A stretch of DNA of 64,000 nt from Squalus acanthias. Lineage: Eukaryota. Position numbers and translations under genes: made by a program. This document shows, in pieces, positions 7,764 through 52,055 of this stretch. The notes below the pieces were generated by a model, which saw only the letters and a program-made list of their open reading frames with translations, was not told where the DNA came from and ran no database searches. The stretch's first letter is position 1. Each line of letters begins with the position of its first letter. Location: NCBI GenBank assembly GCA_030390025.1, contig JASTWF010000138.1:496001-560000 (forward strand). Reading direction: 5' to 3'.

Positions 7764-8072
7764 ATGTTAATTCTTGTTCTTGGTTTGGCAGCTGCTCCTT
7801 GTCACTCGGAGACATTCCAAATATCGGTTTATCGGGGAACCGAAGGACAAACCATTTCGCTTCATCACAAAGCTACTTTCACTACAAATGAGCTCGTATT
7901 CTGGTACCGGCAGTTTTCCAATCAGGCTCCCGAGTATCTCAGCTCCACATTCAGAGAAGAAAGAGTTAAGGGCAGGTTTAAAGTGTCTGTGGACCGTGAG
8001 AAAGGCTCCACCACTCTCACCGTTAACACGGCTCGCCTGTCAGATGCCGCGCTGTATTACAGTGCGGTGAGA
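7764..8072 (+). CDS. TCR V alpha/delta-like segment V3, open frame, both canonical Cys missing
   Basis: (MLILVLGLA)AAPCHSETFQISVYRGTEGQTISLHHKATFTTNELVFWYRQFSNQAPEYLSSTFREERVKGRFKVSVDREKGSTTLTVNTARLSDAALYYSAVR; start is either ATG 7764 or the acceptor TTGGCAG at 7791 with a leader exon hidden in or before the gap. Confidence 0.8.
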
Positions 8073-8111
8073 CACGGTGAAACGAAGAGGTGAGGAGCCT
8101 GCACAAGAACT
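8073..8111 (+). other. Recombination signal sequence (23-bp spacer) of V3
   Basis: CACGGTG + 23 nt + ACAAGAACT. Confidence 0.9.
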
Positions 8112-8351
8112 CACTCATCGCGGGGACCGAGGAGACTCCCAGCCCACGGGTTTCAGAAGCGAGTGCGATAAAAGTACAATCAGTAACAAGGTAATTAACA
8201 TCAGTAAAGTACATCATCAGTGCCATTTAATAGAATAAAAATAAGATTTATTGTTTATTTGGAAATACAAGTTCATTCTTTTCACAAATTCACCCATAAT
8301 CGGCCCTGATCATGCTGGAACTTCTCGATTATCTCTCCCGCACTGTAACTC

Positions 8352-10777
8352 CCCTGGGAATGTTTGATGGGACAGTGTAGAGGGAGCTTTACTCTGTATC
8401 TAACCCGTGCTGTACCTGTCCTGGGAGTGTTTGATGTGACAGTGTGGAGGGAGCTTTACTCTGTATCAAACCCGTGCTGCAACTGCCCTGGGAGTGTTTG
8501 ATGGGACAGTGTAGAGGGAGCTTTACTCCGTATATAACCCGAGCTGTACCTGCCCTGGGAATGTTTCATGGGACAGTGTAGAAGGAGCTTTACTCTGTAT
8601 CTCATCCGTGTTGTACCTGCCCTGAGAGTGTTAGATTGGACAGTGTAGAAGGAGCTTTTCTCTGTATCTAACCGTGCGGTACCTGTCCTGGGAGTGTTTG
8701 ATGGGACAGTGTGGAGGGAGCTTTACTCTGTATCTAACCCGTGCTGTACCTGCCCTGGGAGTGTTTGATAGGACAGTGTAGAGGGAGCTTTACTCTGTAT
8801 CTAACCCGTGCTGCACCTGCCCAGGGAGTGTTTGATGGGACAGTGTAGAGGGAGCTTTACTCTGTATCTAACCCGTGCTTTACTTGCCCTGGGAGTGTTT
8901 GATGGGACAGTGTAGAGGGAGCTTTACTCTGTATCTAACCAGAGCTGTACCTGCCCTGGGAGTGTTTGATGGGACAGTGTAGAGGGAGCTTTTCTCTGCA
9001 ACTAACACGTGCTGTACCTGCCCTGGGAGTGTTTGATGGGACAGTGTAGAGGGAGCTTTACTCTGTATCTAACTCGTGCTGTACCTGCCCTGAGAGTGTT
9101 TGATGGGACAGTGTAGAGTGAGCTTTACTCTATATCTAAGCCGTGTTGTACCTGCCCTGGAAGTGTTTGATGGGACAGTGTAGAGGGAGCTTTACTCTGT
9201 ATTAACCCGTGCTGTACCTGCCATCGTAGTGTTTGATGGGACAATGTAGAGGGAGCTTTAATCTGTATCTAACCCGTGCTGCACCTTACCTGGGTTTGTT
9301 TGAAAGGACAGTGTAGAGGGAGCTTTACTCTGTATCGAAACCGAGCTGTACCTGCCCTGGGAATGTTTGATGGGACAGTGCAGAGAGAGCTTTACTGTGT
9401 ATCTAACTCGTGCTGTATCTGCCCTGGGACTGTTTGATGGGACAGTGTAGAGAAAGCTGTACTCTGTACCTTACCCGTGCTGTACCTGACTTGGGAGTGT
9501 ATGGTGGGAGTGTCTGGAGAGAGCTTTACTTTGTATCTAACCCCTGCTGTACCTGAACAAATAGTGTTTGATGGGGCACTGTAGAGGGATCTTTATTCTG
9601 CATCTCACCTGTGTTGTGCCTGCCCTGGGAGTGTTTGATGGGACAGTGTAGAGGGAGCTTTACTTTGTATCTAACCCGTGCTGTACCTGAACAAATAGTG
9701 TTTGATGGGGCACTGTAGAGGGAGCTTTACTCTGCATCTCAGCTGTGTTGTGCCAGCCGTGGGAGTGTTTGAATGGACAGTGTAGAGTGAGCTTTACTCT
9801 GCATCTAACCCGTGCTGTTCCTGCGATGCGAGTGTTTGATGGGACAGTGCAGAGGGAGCTTTACTCTGTATCTAACCCATGCTGTACCTGCCGCGGGAGT
9901 GTTTGATGGGACAGTGTAGAGGAAGCTTTACTTTGTATCTAACCCGTGCTGTACCTGCCCTGGGAGTGTATGATGGGACAGTGTAGAGGGAGCTTTACTC
10001 TGTATCTGTCCCGTGCTGTACCTGCCCTGGGAGTGTGTGATGGGACAGTGTAGAGGGAGATTTACTCTGTATCTAACCTATGTTGGTCCTGACTGGGAGT
10101 GTTTGATGGGACAGTGTAGAGGGAGCTTTACTCTGTACCTTACCCGTGCTGCACCTGCCTTGGGAGTGTATGATGGGAGAGTCTGGAGAGAGCTTTACTT
10201 TGTGTCTAACCCGTGCTGTACCTGAACAAGTAGTGTTTGATCGGACAGTGTAGAGGGAGCTTTACTCTGTATCTAACCCGTGCTGTACCTGCCCTCGGAG
10301 TGTTTGATGGGACAGTGTAGAGGGAGTTTTACTCTGTATCTGTCCCGTGCTGTACCTGCCCTGGGAGTGTTTGATGGGACAGTGTAGAGGGAGCTTTACT
10401 CTGTATCTAACCCGTGCTGTACCTGCCCTGGGAGTGTTTGATGGGACAGTGTAGAGGGAGCTTTACTCTAAATCTAACCCGTGCTGTACCTGCCCTGGGA
10501 GTGTTTGATGGGATAGTGTAGAGGGAGCTTTACTCTGTATCTAACCCGTGCTGTACCTGCCCTGGGAGTGTTTGATGGGACAGTGTAGAGGGAGCTTTAC
10601 TCTGTATCTAACCCGTGCTGTACCTGCCCTGGGCGTGTTTGATGGGACAGTGTAGAGGGAGCTTTACTCTGTATCTAACCCGTGCTATACCTGCCCTGGG
10701 AGTGTTTGATGGGACAGTGTTGAGGGAGCTTTACTCTGTATCTAACCTATGTTGATCCTGACTGGGAGTGTCTGATG
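8352..10777 (+). repeat. 67-bp tandem minisatellite, ~36 copies
   Basis: Unit GGGAGTGTTTGATGGGACAGTGTAGAGGGAGCTTTACTCTGTATCTAACCCGTGCTGTACCTGCCCT; period 67 (e.g. 10381 to 10448). Confidence 0.97.
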
Positions 10778-11212
10778 CGCAATATTGCTAAAAAAATTAC
10801 CTTGATGAGGAATATATATAGTTTTGATTCAACATTCAGATTTCAGATTAATCCTCAGCAGCAAATTATGAATCATCTTTGATTCATGGAGTTACTGAAT
10901 AATGATTGATCTCCATTTTTACGAAATTAACAATCTAAAATTTCCAAAAGTAGAATTATTAACGTGAAGTTCATCTAGTTTATGCAAATGAACAAGTATT
11001 GTGATAGTGACTTGGCAAAGCAGAAAACTGAGACATGAACTCTCAGCATTAATATCAAATAGCAACGATAGTAAAAGCAAAGCAATAAAATGGCAGCAGT
11101 TGCATTAATAATAACAAAATAATCACGATAATAAACTGGTATATTAATAATCCTGTATTGTCACATAGCAGTATTCATTAATAAATTGAGAATCAATGTT
11201 TCACAAACAGGA

Positions 11213-11266
11213 GTGAGAAGTCGCACAACACCAGGTTATTGTCCAACAGTTTTATTTGAAATCACA
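11213..11266 (-). mobile_element. Short Penelope-like terminal fragment
   Basis: GTGAGAAGTCGCACAACACCAGGTTATTGTCCAACAGTTTTATTTGAAATCACA, nearly identical to 36731-36784. Confidence 0.7.
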
Positions 11267-51125: not shown

Positions 51126-51430
51126 AGGAATTGGACATTGAGTAAATGTGGGCTGTTTGTGGGGAATGTAAATCCTCACAGTGATTCAATTTTATACTAA
51201 ATATGTTTTGGTTCGACCGTATATAATCCCCAACAGTAAATCGGCGATCAAAGTCAAGGTAATTTTGGGGAATGGACACAGAACACGGATTATTAATGGT
51301 TAATTATATTTTACACAGCTGGACTCAGACAGGAAACAGAGGAGGAGTCAGGCTGCTGCTGGGGGAGGCGTGTAACTCCCAGTCCCCAGCTCACCCTCTC
51401 TCTCTCACACACACACAGGGCTCCAGCCAG

Positions 51431-51438
51431 TTTAAATA
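51431..51438 (+). promoter_or_regulatory. TATA-like box of the IgH gene
   Basis: TTTAAATA ~100 bp upstream of the ATG; no ATGCAAAT octamer seen in the proximal region. Confidence 0.45.
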
Positions 51439-51529
51439 GCGGGACGGTTCAGCTCTAAGTTCACAATCAGGAGGCGTTGTTGCGGCGCCGAGACACGTTC
51501 CCGAGTCAGTTACACCGAGAGACCGAACG

Positions 51530-51575
51530 ATGGGACTTGCCCCGTGCCTCTGTTTGTTACTGGTTTGCTTCGCCT
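51530..51575 (+). CDS. IgH leader exon
   Basis: ATG GGA CTT...GCC T|GTGAGT = MGLAPCLCLLLVCFA, phase 1; 120-nt intron to GACAG at 51695. Confidence 0.95.
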
Positions 51576-51695
51576 GTGAGTATTCCTCGCTGCTTTAGTG
51601 ACACAATAGAAGACAGCTTCAGATATTGTGTTTTACTTCTATTCATTGATGTGAATGTTATCCAATGTAATTTAATTTTTTTCATTCACTGACAG

Positions 51696-52055
51696 ATGTC
51701 CGGTCCGATATCGTGCTGACCCAGTCGGCTTCTGCGTCGAAGAAGTCCGGAGAATCTCACAAATTGTCCTGTTCAGTGAGCGGGTTCAATCTGGACAGCT
51801 ACCACATCCACTGGATTAAACAAGTTTCCGGGAAGGGGCTGGAGTGGCTGCTTGCTTCCAGAAAGCCGTCGGAAACCAAACTTTACGCGCCTGGAGTCGA
51901 AGGTCGGATCATCCCTTCAAAAGGCTCTTCCGCAACCTATATCGAGATCAATGATCTGAGAATCGAAGACACCGCCATGTATTACTGTGCAAGAACAGTT
52001 ACTGGGTGGGCCATGGACTTCTGGGGACAAGGCACCATGGTGACGGTGACTGGAG
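51696..52055 (+). CDS. Pre-joined (germline-joined) VH-D-JH exon
   Basis: YVRS-DIVLTQSASASKKSGESHKLSCSVSGFNLDSYHIHWIKQVSGKGLEWLLASRKPSETKLYAPGVEGRIIPSKGSSATYIEINDLRIEDTAMYYCAR-TVTGWAMDF-WGQGTMVTVTG; in frame, no RSS, donor G|GTAAG. Confidence 0.97.

Follow-up and report, generated by a model that had tools for sequence, protein, structure and literature searches.

A germline-joined IgM gene among TCR alpha/delta-type V segments in Squalus acanthias

Introduction

Four other elasmobranchs are already known to have IgM clusters linked to TCR V segments, the catshark with a joined IgM next to TCR V among them (PMC12227049), and the original prediction for the locus described here was right to treat IgH-TCR alpha/delta linkage as known in cartilaginous fish. 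The elasmobranch AgRC (Flajnik et al. 2025, PMC12227049) has TCR alpha/delta-type V exons between IgM mini-clusters, as has the locus of this study; Table S1 of that paper gives the IgM/TCR V layout on great white shark chromosome 27 and a catshark "IgM (gj)" adjoining TCRad V. Further marks of the AgRC are its location on the chromosome of the TCR alpha/delta D-J-C translocon, synteny with PSMB5, and linkage of UrIg2, IgW and IgNAR to it. Germline-joined shark IgH clusters have been reviewed (PMC5192425, PMC4279169) and, like the gene below, have an in-frame VDJ without RSS, an intact leader and promoter region, split and part-joined relatives, and few added bases at the joints. The joining of shark IgH segments by RAG in germ cells is also described (PMC2193156). 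The nurse shark gene IgM1gj, as described in reviews, likewise carries a completely joined VDJ ahead of IgM constant exons and is transcribed; dominance in neonates is one of its hallmarks. A somatic switch that places an IgW V on IgM constant exons has been reported in the same species (review PMC4279169) and provides another case of an IgW-type V on Cmu.

Results and Discussion

The window, a stretch of 64,000 nucleotides from contig C449 of the Squalus acanthias assembly, very probably represents one repeat unit of an array in which IgM mini-clusters alternate with TCR alpha/delta-type V blocks, its IgM gene being a complete germline-joined VDJ-Cmu1-4 gene with transcripts on Cmu. The exons described in the window are all on the + strand. 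The leader exon (51530..51575) has 9 of 15 residues in common with the IgW leader and 6 of 15 with the ordinary IgM leader, and is followed by a germline-joined, in-frame V-D1-D2-J exon (51696..52055) of an IgW-leaning VH family, which ends in a phase-1 donor and has no RSS; the prediction that this V cannot be donated by V(D)J recombination is upheld. Cmu1 (58954..59253) lies 6.9 kb downstream of the VDJ exon, followed by Cmu2 (59986..60297), Cmu3 (63410..63718) and, beyond the window, Cmu4 (G000:C449:561559) and the TM exon (about C449:568400). The spliced frame is open over 560 residues. Cmu1 is 91-97% identical to that of other clusters on scaffold C29 and about 35% identical to the IgW exons, which lie on a separate unplaced scaffold (C284), and the gene has no IgW constant exons. 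The four Cmu exons distinguish it from nurse shark IgM1gj, which according to reviews lacks Cmu2 and has three C domains. In the window copy and a copy on C559 the secretory tailpiece is interrupted by a stop ahead of the penultimate cysteine, and because of this stop their secreted form may be impaired.

Transcripts of the joined VDJ splice to Cmu. The intron at 51576-51695 is spliced out in RNA contigs of two runs (the runs being of guessed or unrecorded kind), and contigs of run X8, for which neither kind nor independence is on record, match the window without differences at 51438-51880 (spliced), 51851-51993 and 51964-52052, the last running on into Cmu1. In the X8 contig across the junction the last J bases are GCA, shared with the unjoined relatives; all three joined genomic copies have GGA here. 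The difference reflects either an allele or a mosaic of the assembly graph. It had been proposed that the VDJ exon could instead splice to a downstream TCR constant exon, giving a fixed Ig-TCR chimera. The phase-1 donor is in the phase of shark J-C joins and IgH V on TCR delta chains are known in sharks (PMC12227049), but the gene has four Cmu exons and a TM exon of its own, the next 90 kb of C449 past it contain no TCR C, and Cdelta and Calpha are single-copy in the genome, both on another scaffold (C911). In three of the four runs (X8, X2 and X5) the loose ends at the J end are Cmu1 among those listed, with 18 more existing, and the chimera is thus highly improbable.

The junction is identical in three genomic copies (window, C29 and C559) and can be parsed as V trimmed by four bases, five bases of D1, one extra base, nine bases of D2, and J trimmed by two. 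The same VH family sits on IgM D-J-C in at least seven of the 27 C29 clusters. Among eight members on C29, two are unjoined, one is VD, four are VDD, and one is VDDJ, with at least six different germ-line joints; known germline-joined clusters differ in that here all joining states occur in one VH family with an IgW-leaning V. Such a series of split, VD, VDD, and VDDJ members lets germ-cell RAG joining be followed stepwise. The joint of the window gene would be the product of germ-cell RAG activity on a V-D1-D2-J cluster belonging to this family, and the joined gene could provide B cells with an IgM of fixed specificity that needs no rearrangement.

The V region is likely of IgW lineage, judging from tree position and identity, and the affinity is moderate. 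An unjoined member has D1, D2, and J-C intron 94-97% identical to an ordinary IgM cluster, while its V has 67% identity to IgW V as against 55-57% to ordinary IgM V. The family is sister to IgW V with support of 83/82 and 90/91 (both unstarred); a clade with the two ordinary IgM V of this genome that were tested is rejected (p = 0.0003), but a clade with all IgM-type V is not (AU p = 0.157). A VH lineage nearer to IgW may have been put on IgM D-J-C long ago as an unrearranged V. The alternative that a rearranged IgW VDJ was switched onto Cmu and then either became fixed in the germ line or represents capture of B-cell sequence takes its appeal from the nurse shark switch (PMC4279169) and from the IgW leaning of both V and leader. 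It is very improbable, since unjoined clusters of the same VH family carry IgM-type D1, D2, and J, the junction is made of their D and J, and that junction is common to three genomic copies. Unlike the nurse shark case, the present one concerns not a switched VDJ but a V family that sits on IgM D-J-C in the germ line, in unrearranged clusters too. No description of an IgW-leaning VH family on IgM D-J-C in all joining states was found in the searchable part of the literature, the coverage of which is incomplete; that the family is both real and undescribed is a tentative claim, somewhat short of an even chance. Such a V is relevant to the question of how V genes became common to IgM and IgW in the later translocon.

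TAILV-type V segments are lone and RSS-bearing, lack D-J-C of their own, and lie upstream of Ddelta. An array of such Ig-like V, RSS-bearing and upstream of Ddelta, is present on C911 at 373-520 kb. The window VH is instead joined and has its own D-J-C; it is 38% identical to the C911 array, and a clade with that array is rejected (AU p = 0.0009), which disposes of the suggestion that the IgW-like V derived from the Ig-like V of this locus.

Upstream of the IgM gene are three TCR-type V segments. V1 (3193..3516), of TCR alpha/delta type, has a 23-RSS at 3478-3516 and two frameshifts in the window copy (pseudogene or sequence error); it is broken in most copies read. V2, also of TCR alpha/delta type, has a leader exon (6821..6881) of 20 codons with a phase-1 GT donor and a V exon (6967..7286) with both cysteines and a 23-RSS at 7248-7286. 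It has a one-base frameshift in the window copy, but 13 of the 14 full-length copies on C29 have an open frame, a leader and an RSS. V3 (7764..8111) has both canonical cysteines replaced (His and Ser) and a 23-RSS, CACGGTG-23-ACAAGAACT, at 8073-8111, directly after the V end at 8072. The V3 exon probably starts at the AG acceptor at 7792, the ATG at 7764 also being in frame, and a search for a separate leader exon found none. Only two 23-spacer RSS with at most three mismatches occur in the window, exactly at the V ends (7248 and 8073), while 100 local shuffles averaged 0.24, with a maximum of 2. Both canonical cysteines are absent from V3 in all 15 copies, and likewise in a horn shark gene model; no earlier description of a cysteine-free V3 was found in the searchable, incompletely covered literature. 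A tree built without named shark TCR V as reference (protein searches yielded none) places V1-V3 with the V at C911:59 kb, on the TCR D-J-C scaffold (98/98), and apart from IgH V (100/100). An open C29 copy of V1 is 58% identical to that C911 V and groups with it (85/85).

The V3 RSS (8073) and the IgH leader ATG (51530) are 43,457 bases apart, both on the + strand and with zero N between them; the coordinates thus confirm the 43-kb, gap-free linkage in one orientation that had been claimed. The accompanying statement that V1 and V2 are linked across gaps requires correction, as there is only one N run, between V1/V2 and V3, and the V2-V3 pair is gap-free in 13 C29 copies. TCR V segments occur on both sides of the IgM gene on C449, in both orientations, and this arrangement, together with the grouping of V1-V3 with a TCR-scaffold V, bears out the proposal of an Ig cluster embedded in a TCR alpha/delta V array.

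The physical linkage of V3 and the joined IgM gene is real. Between them lie a 67-bp minisatellite array (8343..10777) of 36 copies and a 27-bp array (11641..31168) of 19.5 kb, and mis-assembly in one of these had been named as a possible refutation. The arrays are long, of unequal length between copies and present elsewhere too, and C449 resembles a mosaic of C29 segments. A second colinear copy at G000:C29:8.886-8.952 Mb nevertheless holds V2-V3, both the 67-bp array and the 27-bp array (there about 28.5 kb long, interruptions included), and the same VDJ and Cmu in the same order and without any N over 95 kb; the two copies belong to a single assembly. This independent contig shares a 23.7-kb flank with the window at 99.4% identity. 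Of 14 V3 copies, the one on its left side is the closest to that of the window, matching at 277 of 279 bases, and the joined gene on its right side is the same. As TCR V segments are also found 13-50 kb downstream of the gene with no such minisatellite array in between, a fusion of two unrelated parts within an array is very improbable.

Scaffold C29 has 27 Cmu1 rows at 5.97-10.26 Mb, alternating with at least 107 TCR-type V over 4.5 Mb; the V count (109 rows in 107 places, of 137 V3-like matches) is a lower bound, with 150 of 828 candidates scored. The linkage in Squalus adds one shark to the 2025 finding and is denser than in the AgRC (PMC12227049), from which it further differs in that the TCR D-J-C scaffold is unplaced, IgW is on a different scaffold, and no proteasome beta gene was found on C29, C449, or C911. 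C911 opens with a Cmu exon and contains Cmu1-4, TCR V, the Ig-like V array, D, Jdelta, Cdelta, more than 100 Jalpha, and Calpha, resembling the catshark scaffold order of IgM, TAILV, TCRD, and TCRA (PMC12227049, Table S1). Four V families are common to C29 and C911, at 73-84% identity and each with 99-100 bootstrap. Neither C911 nor C449 could be assigned to C29 through the markers DAD, MT-A70, and proteasome; the 28 proteasome matches, among which PSMB5 was not singled out, include none on C29, C449, or C911. Comparison of the C911 ends with two C29 stretches gave short repeat matches only and no overlap. One candidate point of contact is an N run at C29:5,802,929, where a V-D1-D2 is missing its J and Cmu, the Cmu at the start of C911 in turn having no V. 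No TCR C gene was found on C29 or C449 and no marker ties them to C911; the array may share a chromosome with TCR D-J-C.

The V1-V2-V3 block is duplicated on C29. The IgM clusters and TCR V blocks have likely been multiplied jointly by segmental duplication, with the window V1 and V3 likely duplication passengers, and intact V2 copies could still join a distant Ddelta or Jalpha if C911 adjoins the array. Alternatively, the V segments could be orphons, carried off with the IgM clusters, possibly to another chromosome, and no longer recombining with TCR D-J-C. The lack of TCR C on C29 and C449 is consistent with this, as are the broken state of most V1, the loss of both cysteines in V3, and the 38-41% identity of V2 and V3 to the C911 V sampled, among which they have no close relative. 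Variation in 12 open V3 copies is also neutral (47 replacement and 15 silent variants, one of them an artefact of a double change; ratio about 1.05; no departure from neutral, p 0.61); V2 variants (29 replacement, 14 silent) likewise show no departure (p 0.27), these counts excluding three broken V3 copies and two V2 copies. Against this, C911 itself opens with Cmu and the same V families, nearly all full-length V2 copies are open with leader and RSS, and great white shark chromosome 27 carries both the IgM/TCR V array and TCR alpha C (PMC12227049), so that orphon status is the less probable state, although a substantial minority possibility. None of the four runs gave contigs on a V2-V3 copy, a blank that says nothing about expression.

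A more speculative reading of the sequence, and a rather unlikely one, is that the region could be a two-way V-exchange zone. An IgW-lineage VH would have been fixed in at least seven of 27 IgM clusters, TCR V, with 23-RSS that fit the 12-RSS carried by IgM D segments, would be joined to IgM clusters by rearrangement, yielding TCR-V/Cmu antibodies, and the leader-V2-V3 unit, kept in three shark lineages with a V3 free of cysteines, would be a further, two-V product. If true, TCR-V/Cmu antibodies would be the converse of the IgH-V/TCR delta chains already known. With more than 100 TCR V within recombination reach of IgM D, such chimeras become a directly testable question.

Some minor observations concern the individual segments. 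V replacement via the cryptic heptamer that the joined VH carries at its 3' end was rejected, as that heptamer occurs in every VH and nothing supports such replacement. Pfam PF09291 was discarded as a TCR C detector, giving two weak genome matches with stops and no C exon; direct reading of C911 revealed these exons. PDB searches with the VDJ, Cdelta, and V3 were dominated by multi-domain antibody constructs and light chains and give no class assignment, TCR alpha chains being among the best single-V matches of V3.

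Linkage of TCR-type V segments to an IgM gene

Three TCR-type V exons (V1, V2, and V3; 3193-8072) lie upstream of an IgH gene that begins at 51530, and V2 and V3 are followed by 23-spacer recombination signal sequences (RSS) at 7248 and 8073, the only two such matches in the 64 kb (shuffled sequences gave a mean of 0.24, n=100). Repeats and two arrays, one of 67-bp units and one of 27-bp units spanning 19.5 kb, occupy the interval between V3 and the IgH gene, with zero N; the original prediction had the coordinates, the V3-IgH distance, and the absence of N right. It named mis-assembly within the arrays as what would refute the linkage. 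That objection is answered by a colinear, N-free copy on scaffold C29 (8.886-8.952 Mb), where V1-V2-V3 are followed in turn by the 67-bp array, the 27-bp array, the unique flank, the joined VDJ, and Cmu, with zero N across the 95 kb examined. The unique flank is shared by the two copies over 23.7 kb at 99.4%, and the window V3 is nearest to the V3 of this stretch (277/279 bases, the best of 14 other V3 copies). The V3-IgH linkage is no artefact, as judged from two copies in one assembly. The joined gene is present a third time on scaffold C559. On the contig of the window (C449), TCR-type V segments in the opposite orientation also lie at 581-610 kb, between the joined gene and the next IgM cluster.

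LINE-like insertions are found in the window at 3767-5192 and 41900-48850, and a telomere-like AACCCT stretch at 41513-41684. The insertion between V1 and V2 is missing in the C29 copy, where these segments are 1.6 kb apart versus 3.7 kb in the window. A set of three TCR V segments flanks the window as an inverted duplicate (C449:462-480 kb and 591-610 kb), a decayed V-like remnant with broken V motifs lies at about 482.7 kb, and C449 has the appearance of a patchwork of segments found at 6.77 and 8.89 Mb on C29.

The arrangement is extensive: C29 has 27 Cmu1 exons between 5.97 and 10.26 Mb, interleaved with at least 107 V3-matching places (109 of 137 rows, with 150 of 828 candidates scored). 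V1-V2-V3 has been duplicated as a block, and 13 of the 16 C29 regions examined contain both V2 and V3. Far from this array, C29:16.6-18.2 Mb holds three Cmu1 copies that carry stops, along with other C-type exons. One published account describes TCR alpha/delta-type V exons between IgH clusters in four elasmobranchs (PMC12227049), as likewise found on C29 and C449, and the V3-IgM linkage is a fresh instance of that shark antigen receptor complex.

Family of the V segments and the TCR scaffold

A tree built from 45 V domains unites V1, V2, and V3 in one clade (98/98) with a V at 59 kb of the TCR scaffold C911, far from every IgH V. Four further C29 V families each pair with V segments of C911, at 73-84% identity. 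Because of this clade and these shared families, the predicted assignment of the V segments to the TCR alpha/delta family holds.

C911 (864 kb, of which about 410 kb is described here) starts with Cmu1-4, then TCR V segments, then an array of about 35 Ig-like V segments at intervals of about 4 kb, which occupies 373-520 kb and lies immediately upstream of D delta. Each one examined has a 23-RSS and no D-J-C, and this is a large TAILV-like array; its first member (373.7 kb) is divergent, with no leader seen. The TCR delta/alpha D-J-C region is complete (557-784 kb), with one D segment bearing 12 and 23 RSS, about ten Jdelta, a first C and TM exon (583-586 kb), more than 100 Jalpha with FGXG and 12-RSS (many as tandem triplets), and a second C and TM exon (782-784 kb). 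From segment order and the general anatomy of TCR loci, we take the C exons to be Cdelta and Calpha; each is single-copy. About 95 kb of repeats separates Cdelta from the first Jalpha, and a stray J-like segment lies at 836.5 kb.

Marker genes (DAD, MT-A70, proteasome) and a comparison of the C911 ends with two C29 stretches revealed no physical connection between C911 and either C29 or C449. At C29:5,802,929 a V-D1-D2 lacking J and Cmu enters a 500-base N run, and C911 begins just ahead of Cmu1 without a V; this N run is a possible place for C911.

The joined IgM gene and its expression

The window IgH gene is IgM, with a leader, VDJ, four Cmu exons, and a TM exon, and splicing in silico gives an open frame of 560 residues. 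In the window and C559 copies a stop precedes the penultimate cysteine of the secretory tailpiece (C449:561870-561960), and the C29 copy is intact. At the joint, V is short of 4 bases at its end and J of 2, and between them stand ACAGT of D1, a single T, and ACTGGGTGG of D2. This is the pattern expected of RAG joining with scant N addition, the comparison being RAG joining in germ cells (PMC2193156). The neighboring ordinary IgM clusters at C449:445 kb and 633 kb are also part-joined, with D2-J fusion in both and V-D1 fusion in one.

RNA contigs from four runs, of presumed kinds, were aligned to 51300-55400. Run X8 has difference-free contigs over three stretches: 51438-51880, with leader and V spliced; 51851-51993; and 51964-52052, which covers the junction and continues into the first bases of Cmu1. 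The leader intron is also removed in X2, J continues into Cmu1 in X2 and X5 (among the loose ends displayed), and X1 has V pieces without differences. The J of the X8 junction contig ends in GCA, whereas all three joined genomic copies end in GGA, so this contig represents either an allele or a mosaic of the assembly graph. The original prediction stood in its observation and in placing an Ig gene among TCR alpha/delta-type V segments, but not in two proposals. Splicing of the VDJ to a TCR exon is unsupported, the gene having four Cmu exons of its own and J running into Cmu1 in the loose ends displayed for X8, X2, and X5; the other proposal concerned the origin of the V.

An IgW-leaning VH family

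Interest is added by two side findings, a VH family in all joining states and a V3 without cysteines. The window VH is unusual, sharing 64-65% identity with IgW V but 45% with ordinary IgM V. Its family has members at C29:5.80, 5.96, 6.67, 7.28, 7.84, 8.14, 8.94, and 9.13 Mb, C988:405 kb, and C1142:536 kb. Seven of the eight on C29 lie 7-10 kb upstream of Cmu1 and the eighth is cut by an N run; two are unjoined (V-D1-D2-J), one is VD1, four are VD1D2, and one is fully joined. A second full joint occurs on C988 and C1142, and at least six different germ-line joints are present. An unjoined member shares 94-97% identity with an ordinary IgM cluster in D1, D2, and the J-C intron, and its V exon at the DNA level is 73% identical to IgW and 69-70% to IgM. 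"IgW-leaning" is fair wording because the V of an unjoined member is 67% identical to IgW versus 55-57% to IgM V. The IgW exons on scaffold C284 match a Squalus acanthias IgW protein at 95-97% in three matched exons and at 80-85% in V and one part-exon.

Trees place the family beside IgW V (90/91, 83/82, unstarred), the second tree omitting the long-branch V at C911:373 kb. By AU tests, a clade with the ordinary IgM V of this genome is rejected (p = 0.0003), and one with all IgM-type V together is not (p = 0.157). Derivation of the IgW-like V from Ig-like V segments of the locus, as had been proposed, is unsupported, a clade with the C911 array being rejected (p = 0.0009). A single IgW-leaning VH family is seen in each of the germ-line joining states, with IgM D-J-C. 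The literature searched, which did not include key primary papers, yielded no account of an IgW-type VH family in IgM clusters of the germ line and none of a shark TCR V lacking cysteines; prior print is possible for both.

V3 without cysteines

V3 has His and Ser at the two canonical cysteine positions, and neither cysteine is present in any of 15 copies (window 7764-8111; C29 5.99-9.43 Mb), of which 12 are open, two are frameshifted, and one has no acceptor. It usually lies 0.4-1.6 kb behind V2, and inspection of the shortest V2-V3 spacer revealed no separate V3 leader exon. The order leader-V2-V3 recurs in a horn shark gene model (P0001), whose V3 (76% identical) has the same His and Ser and whose V2 is 71% identical. 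In a gene model from catshark (P0002), V2 and the half of V3 that bears the His are fused behind IgM exons, which shows the IgM neighborhood in catshark too. Variation among the copies here is neutral-like. V3 is likeliest a relic, a reading that leaves the conservation across species unaccounted for. The differences between copies are partly clustered in CDR1.
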